Source: Thermodesulfobacteriota bacterium (GTDB lineage: Bacteria; Desulfobacterota; GWC2-55-46). Taken from it: a stretch of DNA of 64,000 nucleotides. Below the pieces are notes generated by a model, which saw nothing but the letters and a program-made list of their open reading frames with translations, was not told the DNA's origin and searched no databases. The stretch spans positions 1,476,744-1,540,743 of the forward strand of contig CP129479.1 of NCBI GenBank assembly GCA_030583865.1, read 5' to 3'. Position 1 is the stretch's first letter; the number at the start of each line of letters is the position of its first letter. This document shows positions 6,012 through 52,401 of the stretch, in pieces. Both the position numbers and the translations under genes were made by a program.

Positions 6012-7046
<1,035 letters not shown>

Positions 7047-7090
7047 CTAGTTTTCGCAATCCGTATAGTCGCTTTACGCTTTTAGCTTAT

Positions 7091-7232
7091 GGCAACCTCT
7101 AAAAATCAGAAATTTTTCCTGCAATCAAGGAAGGGCGGGAATAAAAAGCGGAGCATATATGTGAATATGTGAGCATTTTTATTCACGCCCTGACGCAGAG
7201 TCCGGGTAAAATAGCAATTTTTAGAGGTTGCC
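7091..7232 (+). mobile_element. MITE family B copy 1 (16-bp TIR GGCAACCTCTAAAAAT ... ATTTTTAGAGGTTGCC)
   Basis: Perfect 16-bp terminal inverted repeats; flanked by TTAT/TTAT; between ilvC start and ilvN stop. Confidence 0.85.
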
Positions 7233-7718
7233 TTATCTCTGCTTGGGGCTCCGGGCCATTGCCACCCTTCCGGTCCGGACGATCTCCTTTATGCCGAATG
7301 GGCGGAGTAGCTCGGTAATGGCCCGTATCTTCTCCTCGTCCCCGGTTATCTCTATCGTGTAGGTCCGGGAGCTTACGTCAACGACCTTGGCCCTGAATAT
7401 GTCGACTATCGAGAGTATCTCGGCCCTGGTCTCGGCGTTGAGGTTCACCTTTATGAGGGCGAGCTCCCGCTCGATATGCTCCTCGCCGGTGAAGTCGTAT
7501 ACCTTGATGACGTTCACGAGCTTGTTCAATTGCTTGTTTATCTGCTCGAGGACTTTGTCGTCGCCGCTCGTGACGATGGTCATCCGGGATATCTTCGGGT
7601 CGAAGGTCTCGGCCACCGAGAGGCTCTCGATATTGAAGCCCCGCCCGGAGAAAAGTCCCGATATGCGCGATAGCACGCCGAACTCGTTGGTTACAAGGAC
7701 CGATATCGTATGACGCAC
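7233..7718 (-). CDS. ilvN: acetolactate synthase small (regulatory) subunit
   Basis: 161 aa; ACT domain ISVLVTNEFGVLSRISGLFSGRGFNIESL. Confidence 0.9.
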   Translation of the reverse strand: MRHTISVLVTNEFGVLSRISGLFSGRGFNIESLSVAETFDPKISRMTIVTSGDDKVLEQINKQLNKLVNVIKVYDFTGEEHIERELALIKVNLNAETRAEILSIVDIFRAKVVDVSSRTYTIEITGDEEKIRAITELLRPFGIKEIVRTGRVAMARSPKQR

Positions 7719-7734
7719 GCGTTGGACCTCCCAA

Positions 7735-9429
7735 TCAGACCAGAAGCATCTTGTTCAACGGCTGCCCGGCGGGGACCATGGGGTAGACGCACTCGAACTG
7801 GTCCACCCTGAAGTCCATCAAAACCGGCCTGTCCTTCACTGCCAGTGCCTTCTCCAGCACCGTCCCGACCTCTCCGGGCTTTGTCGCCCGGAGGCCGACC
7901 GCCCCGTAGGCCTCCGCCAGCTTCACGAAGTCCGGCGCGACCGAGATGCAGGTGTGGGAGTACCTCTTCTGGAAGAAGAGCTCCTGCCATTGCCTGACCA
8001 TGCCGAGGACCATGTTGTTGAGTATCACTACCTTTACCGGGAGCTTGTACTGCACGGCAGTGGCGAGCTCCTGGATGTTCATCTGGAGCGAGCCGTCGCC
8101 CGCTATGTCAACGACGGTCTTCTCAGGAAACGCTATCTGCGCGCCGATCGCGGCCGGGAAGCCGAAGCCCATCGTGCCGAGGCCGCCGGAAGTAAGGAAG
8201 GTCCGGGCCTTGTCGTATTTGAAGAACTGGGCCGCCCACATCTGGTTCTGCCCGACCTCGGTGGTTATTATGGCGTCACCGCCCGTAAGCTCGTAGAGCT
8301 TCTCTATGACGAACTGTGGCTTTATCTTGCCCTTCGGGTCCTGCTTGTACGAGAGCCTGTGGCTTCCGCTCCACCCCTCGACCTCGTCCCTCCAGGGCTG
8401 TATTCCTTTTTTGAACTCCTTTGCCGGGGGGCAGGCCTTCAAGAGGTCCTTCAGGACCGTCCTCACGTCGCCGACAATGGGGATATCGACCTTGACGTTC
8501 TTGCTTATCGAGGTCGGGTCTATGTCTATGTGGACGATGCCTGCATACGGCGCGAACTCGTCTATCTTTCCCGTGACCCTGTCGTCGAACCTCGCGCCCA
8601 CGGCGATGAGACAGTCGGTATTCATTACCGCCATGTTGGCGGCGTAGGTGCCGTGCATGCCGAGCATGCCCATGAACAGCGGGTGCGTGCCCGGGAACGC
8701 GCCGAGGCCCATGAGCGTCGTCGTAGTGGGTATGCCGAGCTTTTCGGAAAAGGCCTTCATCTCGGCCGAGGCATTCGAGAGGACCACCCCTCCCCCGGCG
8801 TATACGACCGGCCTCTTCGAGGAAAGTATCAGCTCAAGAGCCTTCCGTATCTGGCCCGGATGCCCCTTGTAGTTGGGCTGGTAGCTCTCTATAGCGGCCT
8901 TATCCGGGTACTTGTAATCCGGAAGCGTCGCGGTAAGAACGTCCTTCGGGATATCCACTAGCACCGGCCCCGGCCTTCCGGTCGTAGCTATGTAGAACGA
9001 TTCCTTTATTATCCTCGGGAGGTCCCTTATGTCCTTGACGAGGTAATTGTGCTTGGTGCACGGCCTGGTGATGCCGACGATGTCCGCCTCCTGGAAGGCG
9101 TCGTTCCCGATCAGGGGCGTCGGCACCTGCCCGGTGAAGACGACCATGGGTATGGAGTCCATGTAGGCGGTGGCAATGCCGGTTACGGTGTTGGTCGCGC
9201 CAGGGCCGGAGGTCACGACCACGACCCCGGGCTTGCCCAGTGCCCTTGCGTAGCCGTCTGCCATGTGCACGGCGCCCTGCTCGTGCCTTACGAGTATGTG
9301 CCGGAGGGGGCTGTCGTAAAGGGCGTCGTAGATGGGCAGTACCGCGCCGCCCGGGAAACCGAATATGGTGTCCACGCCCTCCTTCAGGAGGCATTCGATG
9401 AATATCTCAGCGCCGTTCTTCCTGTTCAT
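7735..9429 (-). CDS. ilvB: acetolactate synthase large subunit
   Basis: 564 aa; ThDP enzyme; [14 protein letters not shown] motif. Confidence 0.92.
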
Positions 9430-9465
9430 GACAATATATTTCCCGTCTGGAATTTCGGTTTGGGC

Positions 9466-11127
9466 CTAAGCCTTGAGTACCGCCCCCGTATAGGCCGATG
9501 TGACCGACTTGGCATACCTTGCAAGCCAGCCGTCCTTTATCTTGGGGGACGGCGTCTTCCATGCCTGCCTCCTCGCCAGAAGCTCCTTGTCAGGCACCTT
9601 GAGCTCCATCTTCCTCGCGGGGATATCAAGCTCGATTGTGTCGCCGTCCTTTACGAGCGCTATGGGCCCGCCCTCTGCAGCTTCCGGCGAGATGTGGCCT
9701 ATGCAAGGGCCCCTGGTGCCTCCTGAGAACCTGCCGTCGGTTATTAGCGCCACGGTTTCGCCCATCCCCATGCCCATGAGGGCCGCCGTCGGCGCGAGCA
9801 TCTCCCTCATGCCCGGGCCTCCCTTGGGCCCCTCGTATCTTATGACTATCACGCTACCAGCCTTGATGTCGCGGCCTACTATCGCCTTCATCGCGGCCTC
9901 TTCGGAATCGAAGACGCGGGCAGTGCCGGTGAAGCGCATCATCTTTTCGCTTACGCCGGACTGCTTTACCACGGCCCCGAACGGCGCCAGGTTACCCTTG
10001 AGCACCGCTATGCCGCCTTCCTTGTGGTAGGCCTCGGAAAGGGGCTTGATGACGCGCTCGTCGACGTAGTCGACGCCGTCTATTATCGCCTTTATCCTTT
10101 TCCCGGAGACCGTCGGGTTGTCCTTTATGAGGTCCTTGAGCCTCAAAAGGAGCGCGCCTATGCCGCCGCCCCAATGAAGGTCCTCCATGTAATACTCGCC
10201 CACGGGCTCAAGCGATGTTATGTGCGGGGTCGTGAGGCTCAGGTCGTTAAACACATCCAGCGGGAGCTTCACACCGGCCTCGTGCGCTATGGCAAGGAGG
10301 TGGAGTACCGTATTGGACGAGCCGCCGAGCGCGAGGTCCGCCCTGATGGCGTTCTCGAAGGCAGCCCTTGTCATTATCTTCCGCGGGGTGACGTTCTTCC
10401 TTACGAGCTCTACCGCGCGCACGCCGCTGTCGAAGGCTATACGGCGCTTTTCAGCCGACGCGGCGAGCGCGGTGCCGCAGAAAGGGAGGCTCATGCCCAT
10501 GACCTCGGTAAGACAGCTCATGGTATTCGCGGTGTAGAGGCCCTGGCAGGAGCCGGCGCCTGGGCAGGCCCCGGTCTCGCAGGCGTTAAGCTCTTCTTTT
10601 GTTATCTCGCCCGCCCGGAAACGGCCCATTGCCTCGAAGGTGTTCCTTATGAACGAGGTCTTCCTGCCCCTGTACCTTCCGGTGAGCATTGGCCCGGCGG
10701 TGACGACTATCGTCGGGATATCGAGGCGCGCAGCGCCCATGAGCATCCCGGGCGTTATCTTGTCGCAGTTCGTAAGGAGTATGAGGCCGTCAAAGGCGTG
10801 GGCCTCCGCCACGCTCTCGATGGTATCGGCGATGAGCTCCCTCGACGGAAGGGAATAATGCATGCCCCTGTGCCCCATTGCTATGCCGTCGCATATGCCG
10901 GGGAGCCCGAAGAACATGGGGTAGCCGCCTCCGGTGTGGACGCCCTTCTCAATGAACCTTTCGAGGTCCCTCATGCCGATGTGGCCGGGTATGAGGTCGG
11001 AAAAGCTCGTGGCCACGCCGATGAAGGGCTTCTTCATCTCGCCGGTGGGTATGCCTGTCGCGTAAAGGAGGGCCCTGGAAGGGACCCTATCAAGTCCTTT
11101 CTTTATCCTGTCACTTCTATTCGGCAT
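9466..11127 (-). CDS. ilvD: dihydroxy-acid dehydratase
   Basis: 553 aa; IlvD/EDD family; CDKITPG and GTCTGMYTANTM-like Fe-S ligand region. Confidence 0.92.
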
Positions 11128-11139
11128 CTACGGCTGCGG

Positions 11140-11370
11140 CTACGCCCCCTTCTCCTCGGCGAAATCGGAAACCCTCTTCTCCATCTCGTCCTTCAATGCG
11201 AGCTTCAACTTCTTGAGCCTCATCTTCTCCATAGTCTCGTCTGCCGTGAGCCTCGGTTTTTTTTCGAGTTTTGCGACCTTGTTCTCATAGTCCTGATGGC
11301 TCTTGTAGATCTTCCTGAATCCATCGTCCTCTTCGAGAAGCTTTTTCAGAATCTCTTCGCGTCTCTCCAT
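11140..11370 (-). CDS. DUF465 (YdcH-like) family small protein
   Basis: 76 aa coiled-coil protein; HQDYENKVAKLEKKPRLTADE...LKKLKLALKDEM matches DUF465 pattern; immediately upstream of ilvD. Confidence 0.5.
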   Translation of the reverse strand: MERREEILKKLLEEDDGFRKIYKSHQDYENKVAKLEKKPRLTADETMEKMRLKKLKLALKDEMEKRVSDFAEEKGA

Positions 11371-11713
11371 TCAAGCCTCCCTTCCACTTTGAGGTCCCTG
11401 TTCCGGGTCTCCGGCATTTCCCCCTTGCAGGAAACAGGCTCACGACGTTAATAAAAAGTGCTTGTTTTTCAAGGACAAAGCTAATTTTTATAATATCGCA
11501 ACCCGGAGAGCTTGTCAATTTGTTACCAAACCGGCTTTTTTCGGCCTGTTATGGCGGGAAAAATGATTTCTTATAACGCATTCCAGCGCCCAAGTCCATA
11601 AAAAACCCGGCATTAGAATGGAAAAAACGGGGTTTTGGCTGAATCTGGAATATTGTACAGGCTGGAAAAAGCGGTTTTTTTGCGGGGACATGAGTCCCCT
11701 TCACGTTATCCTG

Positions 11714-12436
11714 TTAGCGACCGCTTTTAAGCTCTGCTTCGGATTTCCGGAGGTATATCGGGACGAGCTCCGCCGGAGAGACGGCCTCCGCCGCGTGCTC
11801 GAAAGCCAGGAGCCCTACGTTAGAAGCCCTTATGTGCCAAAGGTGGGGCAAGGCCGCGTACGCGTCCCTGAGCGCCTCGACGAGCATTTCCATGTAAACG
11901 GAAAGGCCGCTCCCCAGGAATACGACTTCCCCCTCAAGCCCCCTCCCCCTTATTTCCCCTATGAGGGCCTCGGGCCGCATCGCCGAATCGGGCATGACCG
12001 CCCTGGGGCGGCCTGACATGGTATCGTAAAGGGCGGTGTATACCTCGCCCTTTCTGGCGTCGAGCACCGGGCAGACCATCCTTGCGGAATAAGGGATGTT
12101 CATGGCGAGCGAGGCGAGGGTCGAAACACCGGCTATCTTTTTCCCCTGCGGCCACGCGAGCCCCTTTAGGGCCGATATGCCGATGCGGAGGCCAGTGAAT
12201 GAGCCCGGGCCGACATCAATGGCGAAGAGGTCTACTTCGTCGAGCCCGCACCCGGCGCTCTCAAGGTGCGCTTCAAGGGACTTAAGGAGCCAGCTGGAAT
12301 GGGTCCCCGCGTCCCCGACGGTCCATTCGGAGATGAGCTTTCTATCTTCGAGGAGGGCTATCGAGCCTGACCGGGACGAGGTATCGATTGAAAGTATCTT
12401 CAGGCAACCTCTAAAAATTAGATAATTTTCCCGCAA
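11714..12436 (-). CDS. tsaB: tRNA threonylcarbamoyladenosine biosynthesis protein TsaB (YeaZ)
   Basis: KILSIDTSSRSGSIALL and VGPGSFTGLRIGIS motifs. The annotated ATG start (12434-12436) lies inside the MITE copy at 12403-12545, so the true start is uncertain. Confidence 0.7.
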   Translation of the reverse strand: MRENYLIFRGCLKILSIDTSSRSGSIALLEDRKLISEWTVGDAGTHSSWLLKSLEAHLESAGCGLDEVDLFAIDVGPGSFTGLRIGISALKGLAWPQGKKIAGVSTLASLAMNIPYSARMVCPVLDARKGEVYTALYDTMSGRPRAVMPDSAMRPEALIGEIRGRGLEGEVVFLGSGLSVYMEMLVEALRDAYAALPHLWHIRASNVGLLAFEHAAEAVSPAELVPIYLRKSEAELKSGR

Positions 12437-12545
12437 TCAAGAAAGGGCGGAAATAAAAAGCGGAGCATATATGTGAATATGTGAGCATTTTTATTCACGT
12501 AACCTACGCAGAGTCCGGGGAAAAGGTCAATTTTCAGAGGTTGCC
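12403..12545 (+). mobile_element. MITE family B copy 2
   Basis: Same termini (1 mismatch); internal segment aaaaagcggagcatatatgtgaatatgtgagcatttttattcacg identical to copy 1; flanked by TTCA/TTCA. Confidence 0.85.
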
Positions 12546-12553
12546 TTCAATGC

Positions 12554-13855
12554 CTATCCGAATATTCGGAAAAGGTCGTTATAGGTCACAAGGAGCATGA
12601 GCATGATGAGGAGCGCTATGCCAACCTGCTGGGCCGCGGTCATGAACTTTTCGCTCAAGGGCTTGCCTTTTACGGCCTCCATTCCGAAAAATACGAGGTG
12701 GCCGCCGTCAAGGACCGGTATGGGGAAAAGGTTTATTATGCCGAGCTGGAGGCTCAGGAAGGCCATGAGCGACAGGAGTTCGGCTATGCCCGACTCGGCG
12801 GCCTGGCCGGCCACCTGCGCTATCATTATGGGCCCGCCGAGCGTCTTAAGCGAGTAGTCGCCGACAATGAGCCCCTTTACGACCACGAAGAGCTTGTAGG
12901 TCATGTCGACCCCCGAGGCAATACCCCTCTGGATTGACTCGATAAAGCCGTATTGCCTCGTGACCTGCTCCTCCTGCCTGGAGATGCCGATTAGCCAGGC
13001 CTTGGCATCTTCGTTGTAGACAGGGGTTATCTCGAAGGAAAGCTCTTCGCCTCCCCTCGCCACTTTTATGACCTTCTTGTCGCCGCTTTTGTGTATCGCG
13101 CTTTCAAGCTCGGCCCAATGGTTTATGGGCGTGCCGTTTATGGAGAGTATCCTGTCGCCAGGCGTAAGCCCGGCGTCCTTTGCGGGGAATCCCGGGGCGA
13201 CCCCGCCGATTACCGGGTCCATCGGCGGGAACATCCCGCCGTAGCCAGCGCCGGTCGCCTCTGAGACGGCCGGCACAAGCGTCGTCTCATGGCGGGAGCC
13301 GTCCCTTATGAAGCCGACCTTGAGCTCCTTCCCGGGGCTCATGGCGAGGCCCATGAGGAGCTCCTCCCAGTTCCCGGTCTCGCTGCCCGAGACAGAGACG
13401 ATGGTATCTCCCCTTTTTATGCCGGCCCTGTCAGCAGGCTCATTGGGAGCCACGTACCCCACCTCGGCGGGCCTTTCGAGATAGACCGGGACCTGTATGC
13501 CTATCATGAATATAAGCGGCATGAGGACGGCTGCGAGGACCAGGTTCATGGCAGGCCCGGCGGCCACGATGGACGCCCTTTTCCAGAGGGGCTTGTGGGT
13601 GAACGACCTCATCCGGAGCTCTTCGGTTATCTCCTCGCCGGGCGCTTCCCCGACCATCTTTACATAGCCGCCGAGGGGCAGAAGCGAAATCCTGTACTCG
13701 GTCTCTCCCCTCTGGATGCCGACAAGCTTCGGGCCGAAACCCAGGGAAAACTTCTCGACCCCCACTCCGCTGGCTTTAGCGGCGAGGAAATGCCCGAGCT
13801 CGTGGATGAATATCAGTATGCCGAGGACGATTATGAAGGATATTATCGTTGTCAT
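12554..13855 (-). CDS. rseP: RIP metalloprotease RseP (site-2 protease)
   Basis: 433 aa; HELGHF zinc motif; PDZ domains; multi-TM. Confidence 0.88.
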   Translation of the reverse strand: MTTIISFIIVLGILIFIHELGHFLAAKASGVGVEKFSLGFGPKLVGIQRGETEYRISLLPLGGYVKMVGEAPGEEITEELRMRSFTHKPLWKRASIVAAGPAMNLVLAAVLMPLIFMIGIQVPVYLERPAEVGYVAPNEPADRAGIKRGDTIVSVSGSETGNWEELLMGLAMSPGKELKVGFIRDGSRHETTLVPAVSEATGAGYGGMFPPMDPVIGGVAPGFPAKDAGLTPGDRILSINGTPINHWAELESAIHKSGDKKVIKVARGGEELSFEITPVYNEDAKAWLIGISRQEEQVTRQYGFIESIQRGIASGVDMTYKLFVVVKGLIVGDYSLKTLGGPIMIAQVAGQAAESGIAELLSLMAFLSLQLGIINLFPIPVLDGGHLVFFGMEAVKGKPLSEKFMTAAQQVGIALLIMLMLLVTYNDLFRIFG

Positions 13856-13896
13856 TTCCTATCTCAATTCAAGCGTGATTTTGGCGTAAATTTCTG

Positions 13897-13998
13897 GCAG
13901 CCCCTAAAAATCAGAGATCTTCACCCGAATCAAGGAAGGTCGGGGTTATTCCCGGCCTGACGCAGAGTCGGGGAAAAGATCAATTCTTAGAAGTTGCA
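13897..13998. mobile_element. MITE family B copy 3 (shorter, degenerate)
   Basis: ggcagcccctaaaaatcag ... caattcttagaagttgc; shares gcctgacgcagagtcgggg core with copy 1. Confidence 0.55.
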
Positions 13999-14033
13999 TT
14001 TATTATACAATAAATTGCCGGCCAGTGTCGCGC

Positions 14034-29738: not shown

Positions 29739-29796
29739 CCGGTCCCCGTTGAATTAGGCCGAAAAGGCGAGCCGGCAGGTTACTGAAAAGCCCCCT

Positions 29797-29900
29797 TTGG
29801 GGGAAACTTTCTATAGAAAGTTTCCCCCCACCCCCCCTTCAAAGATTAGTTGTTCCTGAGATGACCCCCATGAATGGGGGTCATCTCAGGAACAACTAAA
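29797..29900. repeat. palindromic repeat family C copy 2
   Basis: Perfect palindrome ggaaactttctatagaaagtttcc (29802-29825) flanked by C/G runs; perfect 24-bp-stem hairpin tagttgttcctgagatgaccccca / tgggggtcatctcaggaacaacta (29848-29898). Sits in the 5' region of the archaeal-type MAT gene. Confidence 0.7.
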
Positions 29901-35340: not shown

Positions 35341-35500
35341 GCCTATCAGGACGTTGAAAAAGTCTTTCCTGGACTTTTTCAACCACGGCCTGGCCGGAAT
35401 GAATCCGTCCAAGCCTCATAAATTGCTCGACATTTTCAGCCATTGCAATTTGGCAATCCATCCGTGGATTGCTTAGCAGGGTGTTTTTCAACACCCTGCT
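35341..35500 (+). repeat. repeat family A, full copy (hairpin 1 at 35353-35383, hairpin 2 at 35475-35500)
   Basis: ~90% identical to revcomp of 55078-55245. Terminal hairpins gttgaaaaagtc..ggactttttcaac and agcagggtgtttttcaacaccctgct. Lies between convergent stop codons. Confidence 0.85.
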
Positions 35501-36908
35501 ACCCCCTTTTCCACCCGGAAGGGGCGCTCCCCGGCCCCTTTATGCCCAGCTCGCGCATCTTGAGGAGGAGCGTATTCCTGTGGATCTTGAGCGCCCTCGC
35601 CGTTTCAGCCCTGTTCCAGTTGGCCTTGTCCAGCGCGCCTTTTATGTAGCGCCTCTCGAAGGCCTTGACCGCTTCCTTGAAATCCAGCGTCATCTCCTTT
35701 CCCGGAGCCGCCTCGTCCGCTAGCGCCGGCATGCCCATCGGCAGGTCGTCGGCCCTTATGAGACCCCCCTCGGGCGCGAGCACCACGAGCCTTTCCAGGA
35801 GGTTTTCAAGCTCCCTGATGTTCCCGGGCCACCCGTAATCCATGAACGCCCTTATGACCTCCGGATGGACCCCCTCCACCCTCTTGCCGCACTTCTTGGA
35901 GAGCTTTTCGAGGAAATGCTCGACGAGCAAAGGCACGTCCTCCTTCCTCTCCCTCAAGGGCGGGAGCTCTATGGGCACAACCTTGAGCCTGTAGAAGAGG
36001 TCTTCCCTGAAGCGGCCCGCCGAGACCTCGTCCTCAAGGCGCGCATTCGACGCCGCTATCACCCTTATGTCGATCGTGATGGAAGAATTCGAGCCGACCC
36101 TTTCGAAGGACCTCTCCTGCAGCACCCTTAGGAGCTTTATCTGGAGGTGCATGGGTAGCGTCGATACCTCGTCAAGGAAGAGCGTGCCAGTGTCGGAGTG
36201 CTCGAACTTCCCGATCTTCCTCTGGTGCGCCCCGGTGAAAGCCCCCCTCTCGTGCCCGAAGAGCTCGCTTTCCATGAGCTCTGATGGCACCGCCCCGCAG
36301 TTCACGGCCACGAAGGGCTTCTCCCTCCTGTCGCTCATGAAATGAATGGCCCTTGCGACGAGCTCCTTGCCGGTGCCGCTCTCGCCCGTTATGAGCACCC
36401 CTGACGAGGTCCTGCTCACCGCCTGCATGAGCCCGAAAACCTTCCGCATCGCGGGCGACCTGCTTATCATCTCGCCGTTCAGGTACCTGAGGCCGTTCCG
36501 CTCGTTAAGCTCTTCCTTGAGGAACTCGATTTCGCTCTTGAGCTTAAGCCCTTCGGACAGCCTCGATAGTGTGGCAAGGAGCTCATCCCCGTCAAAGGGC
36601 TTGGCTATGTAGTCGTAGGCGCCTTTCCTGAGGGAGGATACCGCCTGCTCGGCGCTGTCGAGGGCGGAGAGCATTACGACCTCGATCGAGCCGTCGAGCT
36701 CCTTCAACCGCCCGAGCGTTTCAAGCCCGTCCATGCCCGGCAGCTTAAGATCCAGGAGCACTATTTCCACCGGCCTCGAACGTGCCAGAGAGAGGGCCTC
36801 ATGGCCGGTCCGGGCCTTCAGGACCTCATAGCTCTCCCTGAGGAGTATCTCGAGCGCGCCCGTTACGAAATCGTCGTCGTCCACTACGAGGACAAGTGGT
36901 TTTCTCAT
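35499..36908 (-). CDS. sigma-54-dependent response regulator (NtrC family: REC-AAA+-HTH)
   Basis: VLVVDDD receiver; GESGTGKE Walker A; GAFTGA sigma54-contact motif; C-terminal HTH. Stop codon lies in terminal hairpin of repeat A copy. Confidence 0.85.
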   Translation of the reverse strand: MRKPLVLVVDDDDFVTGALEILLRESYEVLKARTGHEALSLARSRPVEIVLLDLKLPGMDGLETLGRLKELDGSIEVVMLSALDSAEQAVSSLRKGAYDYIAKPFDGDELLATLSRLSEGLKLKSEIEFLKEELNERNGLRYLNGEMISRSPAMRKVFGLMQAVSRTSSGVLITGESGTGKELVARAIHFMSDRREKPFVAVNCGAVPSELMESELFGHERGAFTGAHQRKIGKFEHSDTGTLFLDEVSTLPMHLQIKLLRVLQERSFERVGSNSSITIDIRVIAASNARLEDEVSAGRFREDLFYRLKVVPIELPPLRERKEDVPLLVEHFLEKLSKKCGKRVEGVHPEVIRAFMDYGWPGNIRELENLLERLVVLAPEGGLIRADDLPMGMPALADEAAPGKEMTLDFKEAVKAFERRYIKGALDKANWNRAETARALKIHRNTLLLKMRELGIKGPGSAPSGWKRG

Positions 36909-37085: not shown

Positions 37086-38462
37086 TTATGCCAGATCTGC
37101 TGAAGCGTCTTCGTTCTCTATCCCATAACTCCTGATTTTTCTATAAAGATGACTCCTTTCTATGCCTATGGCCTCGGCGGTCCGGGCGATGTTCCCCCCG
37201 AACTCCTTGAGTTTCCTTGAGATGAATTCCTTTTCAAAGTCCTTCCTGGCCTCCTTGAGGAGATCGCTCCTGGAGATGAAGCCAGGCTGGACGGACTGGG
37301 AACCTTTGATATACGCAGGGAGGTCGCCGGACGTTATCGTATGGGAATGGGTCATTATGACGAGCCTCTCCATGAGGTTCTTAAGCTCCCGGACGTTCCC
37401 CGGCCAGTCGTACGAATAAAGCATCTCCCTGGCCTCGGGGCTTACGGAGAGGACTTCCCTTGCCGTCTCCCGCGCGAACTCCTTGAGGAAATGCTCCATC
37501 AAAAGGGGTATGTCTTCCCTCCTCTCCCTCAAGGGCGGGACATGGAACGGTATCACGTTGAGCCTGTAATAGAGGTCTTCCCTGAACCTCCCTCTTGCGA
37601 CCTCCTCGCTCAGGTTCTTGTTGGTGGCGGCGATCACCCTGGTATCGACCGTGATGAGCTCGGTCCCCCCCACCCTCTCAAAGCTCTTCTCCTGGAGGAC
37701 GCGGAGTATCTTGGCCTGTGTCCTGAGGCTCATGTCCCCTATCTCGTCCAGGAATATGGTGCCCTTGTCGGCCAGGTCGAACTTGCCCTTTTTCTGGGCC
37801 AGTGCGTTCGTGAACGCGCCCTTCTCATGCCCGAAGAGCTCGCTCTCGATAAGCTCTTCGGGAATTGCCGCGCAGTTGACCTCGATGAAAGGCCTTCCCG
37901 ACCTGGTCGAGAGGAGGTGTATGTTCCTTGCGACAAGCTCCTTGCCGGTGCCGTTGTCACCGGTTATGAGTACCCATGAATTGGACGGGGCCGCCTTCCT
38001 TATATCGGCCTTGAGCGACTGTATGGCCTGGGAGCCGCCTATTATCTCGAACCTGGCGCCGACCTTCTGCCTGAGGTTGCTGTTCTCCTCGGTAAGCCTC
38101 TTCTGCTCTATGGCGTGCTCGACCGTAAGGGTGACCTTTTCGAGCGAGAGCGGCTTTTCGATGAAGTCGTAGGCCCCGAGCTTGGTCGTCCTTACGGCCG
38201 TGTCTATGTTGGCGTGCCCGGATATCATTATGACCGGCAGGCCCGGGTGCCTTGATTTAATCTCCTTCAGGGCCTCGACCCCGTCCATGCCCGGGAGCCA
38301 GATGTCCAGGAGCACGGCGTCGGGCTGCCTGACCTCGAGTTTCTTAAGCCCCTCCTCGGCGCTACCGGCGGTAACGACCTCGTGCCCCTCGTCCTTGAGG
38401 ACGCCTAGGAGCGCTTCCCTTATCTCTTTTTCGTCGTCGATTACCAGGACTGTCGTCTTCAT
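37086..38462 (-). CDS. ntrX: sigma-54-type response regulator, NtrX-like
   Basis: 458 aa; REC + AAA+ (GDNGTGKE, GAFTNA variant) + HTH; 4-nt overlap with upstream kinase. Confidence 0.78.
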   Translation of the reverse strand: MKTTVLVIDDEKEIREALLGVLKDEGHEVVTAGSAEEGLKKLEVRQPDAVLLDIWLPGMDGVEALKEIKSRHPGLPVIMISGHANIDTAVRTTKLGAYDFIEKPLSLEKVTLTVEHAIEQKRLTEENSNLRQKVGARFEIIGGSQAIQSLKADIRKAAPSNSWVLITGDNGTGKELVARNIHLLSTRSGRPFIEVNCAAIPEELIESELFGHEKGAFTNALAQKKGKFDLADKGTIFLDEIGDMSLRTQAKILRVLQEKSFERVGGTELITVDTRVIAATNKNLSEEVARGRFREDLYYRLNVIPFHVPPLRERREDIPLLMEHFLKEFARETAREVLSVSPEAREMLYSYDWPGNVRELKNLMERLVIMTHSHTITSGDLPAYIKGSQSVQPGFISRSDLLKEARKDFEKEFISRKLKEFGGNIARTAEAIGIERSHLYRKIRSYGIENEDASADLA

Positions 38463-41439: not shown

Positions 41440-41580
41440 GGCAATCTCTAAAAATCAACCTTTTACCCGGATTCCGTTCAGACGTGGATGAAAATGCACA
41501 CATATTTATCATGCATGTATGCATCGATTTTTATTCCCGGCCTTTATTGCGGGAAGAATCTCAAATTATCAGAGGTTGCT
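41440..41580. mobile_element. MITE family B copy 4 (diverged)
   Basis: ggcaatctctaaaaatcaa ... aattatcagaggttgct termini; different internal sequence. Confidence 0.55.
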
Positions 41581-52066: not shown

Positions 52067-52401
52067 GATAATTAGAGCTCAGGATCCGGGACCATCCCCC
52101 CAGTGCCGTCCCTGCTCGACCAACTCACAATAAAAAAACCGTCACGGCACCGCATCCAGCAATCGTAAATGCTGAATGTTTGGCCCAGACGGTCGGCAAG
52201 CGCACTGTTATTCCCGCTCCCCGGTGGTTGCCCACCTTGATTCCGTCAGTTACGGGAAAATTTTATGGGGAATTTATTAGAAACATCTTAATCCAGGACC
52301 GCGGGCCTTGTCAAGGATTAATCGAATTGAAATCCCGGTGCGGAAGCCTTTCCGGCGTACCCTGCCAAAGCGCAGGGGACATTGCAAATTGCCCGGCGCG
52401 C

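Follow-up and report, generated by a model that had tools for sequence, protein, structure and literature searches.

The window analysed here is a stretch of 64,000 nucleotides from a Thermodesulfobacteriota bacterium (contig CP129479.1), and the subject is tsaB, a gene on its minus strand, together with a MITE (miniature inverted-repeat transposable element) that has inserted into the tsaB start codon. Read 5' to 3' on the minus strand, the locus consists of rseP, the trinucleotide GCA, TTG AAG, a 143-bp element, and then TG AAG ATA CTT TCA ATC GAT ACC, which corresponds to the (L)KILSIDTSS sequence of TsaB. The genes around tsaB are rseP, dxr, ilvD, ilvB, ilvN, and ilvC. The features of the junction are as follows:

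11714–12403, minus strand: core coding sequence of tsaB, 229 codons plus stop; matches TIGR03725 and is 93% identical to protein P0001
12554–13855, minus strand: rseP, the upstream gene; its TAG stop codon (12556–12554) lies 3 nt ahead of the native tsaB TTG
12403–12545, no strand assigned: MITE copy 2, 143 bp, with a terminal inverted repeat (TIR) at both ends; aligns with copies at 7091, 13896, and 41440
12529–12545, minus strand: left (transcript-5') TIR, GGCAACCTCTGAAAATT, the base of a predicted RNA hairpin
12403–12419, plus strand: right (transcript-3') TIR, whose transcribed strand reads AATTTTTAGAGGTTGCC
12546–12549, minus strand: upstream copy of the target-site duplication (TSD), TGAA, present as a single TGAA in relatives
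12399–12402, minus strand: downstream copy of the TSD, TGAA
12527–12550, minus strand: mini-open reading frame (mini-ORF) of 7 codons, MKATSEN followed by a stop; opens at the native TTG (12550–12548), ends with TGA (12529–12527), and covers the 17-nt left arm
12434–12436, minus strand: in-frame TTG inside the MITE, 11 codons upstream of the conserved N-terminus, with an in-frame TGA (12439–12437) directly ahead
12407–12411, minus strand: Shine-Dalgarno (SD)-like GAGGT supplied by the right TIR, its GAGG core 4 nt upstream of the CTG
12401–12403, minus strand: CTG at the start position of the orthologues; its C ends the right TIR, and its TG opens the TSD

The native start of tsaB and its disruption

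By profile and alignment, the product of the tsaB ORF is a clear TsaB/YeaZ. It scores 145.2 bits against TIGR03725 (cutoff 69.3), with residues 14–230 covering profile positions 1–212; the N-terminus falls at profile position 1, in agreement with the alignment of orthologues. In the six-frame ORF list the gene extends over 11714–12436, encodes 240 amino acids, and opens with TTG. The 240-residue product corresponds exactly to NCBI WKZ31677.1, encoded on a MAG contig of 2.75 Mb; its annotated start is the TTG inside the MITE. The close orthologues returned by a protein search are 54–93% identical, and all 16 that were aligned begin with M/L/V-KIL(S/A)IDTSS at residue L12 of the window protein, which is the position of the CTG; none carries the MRENYLIFRGC leader.

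Sites without the element reveal what preceded it. At each of eight related loci (L001, L002, L005, L006, L041, L042, L043, and L044), the TAG of rseP is followed by 2–3 nt and then by TTG AAG ATA CT., with no repeat between the genes. Because all eight read in this way, the native start of tsaB is a TTG abutting the rseP stop codon, and the native boundary, judged by its sequence, appears to be a classic translationally coupled junction. The window equals the empty-site sequence plus 147 bp, that is, the 143-bp element and a second TGAA. Two of the empty sites, L041 (SRR5266476) and L042 (SRR10064596), belong to contigs that are 98.6–98.7% identical to the window in the flanking genes and that share another copy of the element with it (copy 3, see below) but lack copy 2. 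This identity and the common copy 3 mark them as the same species; the tsaB insertion is thus polymorphic within the species.

It is practically certain that transposition of the MITE hit the TTG with which tsaB began and split this native start. The TGAA target takes in the second and third bases of the start codon together with the two bases that open codon 2. In the upstream duplicate, TTG AAG is retained, with the TTG at a position identical to that of the start codon in empty-site relatives, and the sequence runs into the left TIR as TTG AAG GCA ACC TCT GAA AAT TGA. At the other end, the terminal C of the element stands ahead of the downstream duplicate and the first codon of tsaB has changed from TTG to CTG. 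Since the insertion adds 49 codons (147 nt), the native TTG is still in the tsaB frame, but it is cut off from the gene because three in-frame stops intervene. The TTG inside the element, at 12436, shares the tsaB frame; no stop intervenes, and it is contiguous with the host ORF.

A preliminary description of this DNA, made from the sequence alone, had proposed that a short inverted-repeat MITE supplies the annotated start of tsaB. The first start codon does lie within 12403–12545; however, it is not an ATG. The description had placed the only in-frame ATG at 12434–12436, a misreading, because the ORF list gives TTG at 12436 (12436–12434 on the minus strand), and no in-frame ATG occurs in the tsaB ORF ahead of residue 112. 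Its CTG at the conserved N-terminus, positioned at about 12372 and just outside the TIR, is in fact some 30 nt away, at 12403–12401, and begins with the terminal base (C) of the right TIR. Of the two alternatives that it offered, replacement of the native start proved essentially right, as the native TTG of empty sites in five related assemblies shows; the other, that the MITE does no more than occupy the ribosome-binding region, fails in that the element split the start codon itself, although a non-ATG start at CTG 12403 remains a live candidate. Both comparisons that it had suggested were informative: the alignment of orthologues places the N-terminus at the CTG position in 16 of 16 cases, and strains lacking the insertion (L041 and L042) carry a precise empty site.

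The filled allele also occurs outside this assembly. The TsaB and RseP of the window recur on eight short contigs (Logan) that were assembled independently from seven public runs; the runs with the filled allele number at least seven (SRR30831073, SRR24881069, SRR29109023, SRR24130422, ERR3169470, DRR779145, and SRR29109021). All eight contigs end inside the MITE, as assemblers do at repeats, and their junction sequence is identical. As eight independent contigs share the junction, the allele is real and represents one widely sampled clone; every insertion-bearing contig is 100% identical to the window over 1.6–4.4 kb. The filled allele is recent and polymorphic within the species. A search for the right junction in metagenome contigs of the Joint Genome Institute gave no matches.

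Further observations concern the surroundings of tsaB. The gene adjoins an ilvD-ilvB-ilvN-ilvC cluster (6012–12436 with tsaB), and Staphylococcus aureus TsaB/YeaZ is reported to bind ilv-leu operon DNA (PMC11117223); the adjacency may be a coincidence. A 343-nt non-coding gap follows tsaB on its 3' side (11371–11713; 340–445 nt in relatives, with an ORF of 84 amino acids called there on L041). Within this gap, ahead of a DUF465 gene and ilvD, there is a near-consensus, promoter-like TTGACA-17-TATTAT (11518–11490, minus strand).

The element and its family

The element is a real MITE: it has TIRs, a TSD that is single at the empty site, a small size, and dispersed copies, and it is polymorphic for presence and absence. 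Its 17-nt arms follow the pattern GGCAACCTCT[A/G]AAAATT at 12403–12419 and 12529–12545. This pattern has eight matches in the window, compared with 0.24 expected by chance, and every match belongs to one of four elements, which align end to end. In addition to copy 2, these are:

7091–7232, no strand assigned: MITE copy 1, in the ilvN-ilvC spacer; its TSD, ATAA, includes the TAA stop codon of ilvN
13896–13998, no strand assigned: MITE copy 3, 103 bp, with an internal deletion and degenerate TIRs, in the dxr-rseP spacer
41440–41580, no strand assigned: MITE copy 4, flanked by TAAA as its TSD and belonging to a divergent subfamily

Copies 1 and 2 are about 90% identical, and perfect 4-bp direct duplications flank three of the four elements (TTAT, TTCA, which is TGAA on the minus strand, and TAAA). 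Copy 2 contains no ORF of 40 or more amino acids and has stops in the tsaB frame. A scan of the window at Rfam gathering thresholds found no match for the MITE, and a literature search with the TIR string returned none.

When one genome per prokaryotic species was scanned for its two termini at MITE spacing, 24 loci were found. Sixteen of these are related copies, 78–92% identical, in two deltaproteobacterial metagenome-assembled genomes (MAGs): 14 in H5_GWC (GCA_015075075) and 2 in UBA5799. Perfect 4-bp TSDs are present in 14 of 27 evaluable copies of the family, and most copies are flanked by perfect or 3/4-matching AT-rich 4-bp duplications (TTAA, TTTA, TAAA, AAAA, TCAA). Such TSDs, together with GG termini, are presumably compatible with elements of the IS5/IS701 type. 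Gene context, like the SD statistics given below, was taken from the calls of a crude codon-usage gene caller. By these calls, about 40% of copies lie 0–8 nt past a stop codon (including copy 1 and those at L019, L023, L027, L028, L031, and L034), which fits a preference for TTAA-like targets: where the genome is GC-rich, these are concentrated at the ends of genes. The insertion at TTGAAG of tsaB looks like the same target preference.

Orientation was considered as a sign of selection and rejected: all four copies in the window share one orientation relative to the genes, but with the relatives included the counts in co-directional gene contexts are 9 as in the window and 5 opposite. These counts give no sign that the family has been selected as a portable ribosome-binding site. 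A second apparent TTG fusion, at L027, was likewise set aside; although its ORF opens at the same MITE-internal TTG, what follows has the look of non-coding sequence or a terminator, and the fusion is probably a longest-ORF artefact.

Copy 3 is common to the window and the conspecifics L041 and L042 and is absent from H5_GWC. It lies (region 13896–14031) between a promoter-like sequence, GCGACA-18-TATAAT, with the TATAAT box at 14007–14002, and the start of rseP; the box is conserved in all relatives, and the copy would fall in the 5' untranslated region of rseP. In other genomes, the same 15-nt termini, GGCAACCTCTAAAAA, occur on elements of 130–155 bp with unrelated interiors, mostly with perfect TTAA-like 4-bp duplications (L017:626–780, L021:1988–2142, L022:4936–5082, L024:5245–5395, L026:2–148, L040:5899–6053, and L030:4297–4426). 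Their hosts are MAGs of gut Firmicutes (Ruminococcus, Christensenellaceae, Oscillospiraceae, Acutalibacteraceae) and one alphaproteobacterial MAG. Judging from these shared ends, a single transposase family may mobilise different MITEs across phyla.

The window holds other repeats and one known RNA element. Two short dispersed pairs (1–48 / 35451–35498 and 2822–2867 / 29783–29828), one 92% identical and the other 80% identical with the palindrome GGGGGAAACTTTCT(G/A)TAGAAAG(G/T)TTCCCCC, may be further small repeat families. The stretches 35901–36404 and 37476–37979, about 70–74% identical and 1575 bp apart, are probably tandem paralogous genes. The only Rfam match in the window is a ZMP/ZTP riboswitch (RF01750) at 52176–52263 on the minus strand, with 63.5 bits against a gathering score of 39.

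Candidate starts and translation of tsaB

A promoter scan found no sigma-70-like promoter inside the MITE, and candidates picked by eye had poor spacing or poor hexamers; a MITE-borne promoter driving tsaB was rejected on these grounds. An intrinsic terminator was rejected as well: the hairpin is not followed by a T-run, and a minus-strand scan around the element yielded none. As neither a promoter in the element nor a terminator after it was found, tsaB is most simply co-transcribed with rseP. The RNA of the MITE is predicted to fold into one long hairpin of -51.8 kcal/mol (z = -5 relative to shuffled sequences), in which the paired TIRs would bury both candidate starts.

The two candidates differ in nearly every respect. 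TTG 12436, the only canonical start codon available to tsaB, has no SD-like pairing (+1.3 kcal/mol) and lies in AU/U-rich surroundings; its product is the native protein with 11 additional residues. At CTG 12403, GAGGT would pair with the canonical anti-SD at -6.5 kcal/mol, and the product has native length. Genes called in the window have a median of -4.7 kcal/mol. For random background, the 25th percentile lies at -5.9 and the 10th at -7.5; the pairing at the CTG falls within that background and is therefore not improbable by itself. The cost of opening each start was computed over a 32-nt ribosome footprint:

Free transcript: 23.9 kcal/mol for CTG 12403; 15.5 kcal/mol for TTG 12436
Left arm single-stranded, as it would be under a ribosome on the mini-ORF: 10.9 kcal/mol for CTG 12403; 11.1 kcal/mol for TTG 12436
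MITE-free conspecific site (L041), as reference: 11.8 kcal/mol

In the free mRNA, structure favours TTG by about 8 kcal/mol and SD pairing favours CTG by about the same amount. As these terms roughly cancel, codon identity is left, and it favours TTG 12436: relative to AUG, initiation in E. coli is 10–100% for UUG and 1–2% for CUG (Hecht et al. preprint). The full account, with TTG 12436 as the main start of tsaB and the annotated 240-residue protein as its product, is given a probability of roughly 0.45. In this account tsaB would still be expressed, co-transcribed with rseP, and its translation would rely on signals in the right end of the MITE. Initiation at TTG 12436 would lengthen the native N-terminus by 11 residues encoded in the MITE (MRENYLIFRGC), an extension plausibly tolerated by TsaB; crystal structures of the protein include chains with 7–20 extra N-terminal residues (1okj, 4y0w, 5br9). 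CTG 12403, with the TIR-borne GAGG, could serve as a second, possibly concurrent, start site. The folding model predicts that the TIR stem strongly inhibits tsaB initiation unless upstream translation melts it. Ribosomes finishing rseP, or translating the mini-ORF, would melt the left arm and probably help tsaB initiation, and in this way the translational coupling of tsaB to rseP would be preserved.

Several points weigh against this account. TTG 12436 lacks an SD-like sequence and lies partly in paired bases itself, and the main ground for preferring it is the identity of the start codon, as measured in E. coli. Moreover, a canonical anti-SD was assumed for this organism in the comparison. 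Finally, the complete identity of the insertion-bearing contigs means that selection has had no time to show whether tsaB is still functional.

The strongest competitor, a real possibility though a tentative one, is that TsaB starts at CTG 12403–12401 with the GAGG(T) of the right TIR as its SD sequence; the protein would then have native length, and the 11-codon extension would be an annotation artefact of choosing the longest ORF. The CTG lies exactly where the orthologues start, the GAGGT stands 3–4 nt upstream with a pairing energy stronger than the gene median of the window, and the opening cost with the left arm melted matches that of the ancestral site. The ancestral combination of TTG and a weak SD also suggests that little TsaB is needed. 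However, the 4-nt spacer between GAGG and CTG is at the short limit, the CTG is the most buried site in the free mRNA, and a match as strong as its SD lies inside the random background. CUG initiation does occur at a low level in E. coli, but only at the 1–2% cited above (Hecht et al. preprint).

Rather unlikely is a third explanation, in which the insertion silenced tsaB or sharply lowered its expression and what looks like an intact gene is a pseudogene of recent origin or a hypomorph, with N6-threonylcarbamoyladenosine (t6A) or TsaB not strictly required here or with a second copy elsewhere in the 2.75-Mb genome. That the MITE directly affects tsaB expression, as the preliminary description held, is supported by the anatomy at the sequence level; that the gene is essential, as it also held, is an assumption for this organism. 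Genes for t6A synthesis are dispensable in some bacteria. Silencing would agree with the uncoupling of the native start from tsaB and with the position of two sub-optimal replacement starts within a predicted hairpin of -52 kcal/mol; besides, the allele, confined to one clone, is so recent that an intact ORF is uninformative on function. Diversity among the insertion-bearing contigs was discarded as a test of selection, all of them being identical. Against silencing, the clone is abundant enough for assembly from at least seven independent runs, and TsaB is essential in most bacteria tested (cf. PMC11117223).

The substitution pattern bears on the same question. The tsaB ORF is intact, with a ratio of nonsynonymous to synonymous substitution rates (dN/dS) of 0.10 relative to L001 and 0.20 relative to L041. 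The latter, conspecific value exceeds those of rseP, dxr, and ilvD relative to L041 (0.05–0.11), which would favour silencing; however, when changes are polarised with outgroups, 6 synonymous and 3 nonsynonymous ones (the start-codon change included) fall on the window branch, similar to the controls, as against 3 and 2 on the L041 branch, and the raised divergence resembles a mosaic or recombination tract that also occurs in MITE-free lineages. Among lineages, mosaicism is seen in the first (5') third of tsaB and also in the spacer between rseP and tsaB, of 3 nt or 2 nt (12340–12403 and 12546–12556 compared with L041, L005, and L043). The changes on the window branch cluster in tsaB codons 4–7 (CTG GCG..GAC to CTT TCA..GAT). 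This cluster was considered as compensation for the insertion and rejected: CTT TCA is also present in MITE-free L043, the region is mosaic, and local structure is not loosened. Recombination or old polymorphism explains these changes as well as compensation does.

Two observations concern the tract itself. The window and the conspecific L041 are 97.0% identical in tsaB and 98.6% identical in the flanks, and the window matches more distant lineages at tsaB codons 4–7 and 19–22 and in the 3-nt spacer. From this pattern, the mosaic tract may be the recombination that carried the MITE allele.

An extended account is unlikely. It would make the insertion partly self-repairing: the TIR stem, the mini-ORF over the left arm, and GAGG-N4-CTG would form an rseP-coupled switch, in which ribosomes leaving rseP would translate the mini-ORF, open the stem, and so lay bare a ribosome-binding site borne by the transposon, with a natural CUG start for an essential gene. 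The TIR family, whose termini also bound unrelated MITEs in Firmicutes and Alphaproteobacteria, would more generally be a hairpin that carries an SD sequence from place to place. Lastly, a misplaced element boundary with the native upstream start still serving tsaB, which the preliminary description had named as the case that would contradict it, or a repeat produced by assembly, has next to no probability: the native TTG 12550–12548 does persist in frame upstream, but the three in-frame stops bar it from tsaB, empty sites fix the element edges to the base, and the junctions are identical in eight independent contigs.

Relation to known elements and significance

Contributions of mobile repeats to gene starts have been described in other bacteria. 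MITEAba12 of Acinetobacter is likewise small, is bounded by TIRs, and has start codons close to its ends (Adams & Brown 2019, PMC6382973); some of its insertions give 5' fusions in which read-out from the TIR supplies the first residues, MQQS, of a neighbouring coding sequence. Unlike the present MITE, MITEAba12 is 113 bp long, unrelated in sequence, and equipped with outward promoters, of which none was detected here, and its fusions were not shown to strike the existing start codon of a conserved housekeeping gene (PMC6382973). Neisseria REP2 and Borrelia upstream repeats are similar in that a repeat directly upstream provides a ribosome-binding site and a start codon (ATG) fused to the ORF (Delihas 2011, PMC3184786); REP2, however, carries a promoter and is not a transposon with TIRs and TSDs. 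Moreover, the start-supplying role seen here is an accident of one recent insertion and not a family-wide property; the orientation counts relative to genes are mixed, 9:5. Palindromic elements of Rickettsia, among other repeats, have been described as in-frame fusions with ORFs (Ogata 2000; Delihas 2007, both as cited in PMC3184786). The Rickettsia elements resemble the present one as mobile palindromic repeats contributing coding sequence to a host protein, but they insert internally and are translated through, whereas the present MITE has stops in frame and only its last 11 codons are translatable. MITE-derived 5' ends of genes are already documented, and the novelty of this case is modest; it stands out by its resolution and its target gene.

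Correia elements (CREE) of Neisseria are TIR elements of about 100–155 bp that are co-transcribed with their neighbours and form long mRNA hairpins affecting expression; their target duplication is TA, and IHF sites and promoter halves lie within them. The present family has 4-bp TTAA-like TSDs (TGAA, TTAT, TAAA, TTAA, and others) and a TIR unlike that of Correia elements, and it is not a Correia family because the TSD is 4 bp and not TA. The arrangement at tsaB also recalls translational coupling through melting of an inhibitory stem, as in the coat-replicase pair of phage MS2 and in erm leader peptides: a stem has one arm overlapped by an upstream ORF, and its other arm hides the downstream start. 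Unlike those stems, the one at tsaB arose by chance from transposon TIRs and is only predicted.

The deposited TsaB of 240 amino acids opens with 11 residues of transposon sequence, which calls for caution with its annotation. The family as a whole is a new group of MITEs whose 4-bp target is TTAA-like; in a GC-rich genome, its members often hit stop and start codons. For tsaB itself there are two options, a canonical codon without an SD sequence but with a foreign N-terminal tail, or a CUG with a transposon-borne SD. One species carrying both the native, coupled TTG tsaB and the transposon-split tsaB constitutes a natural experiment resolved to the base pair, and a comparison of its strains would show how a normally essential gene keeps running after the loss of its start.

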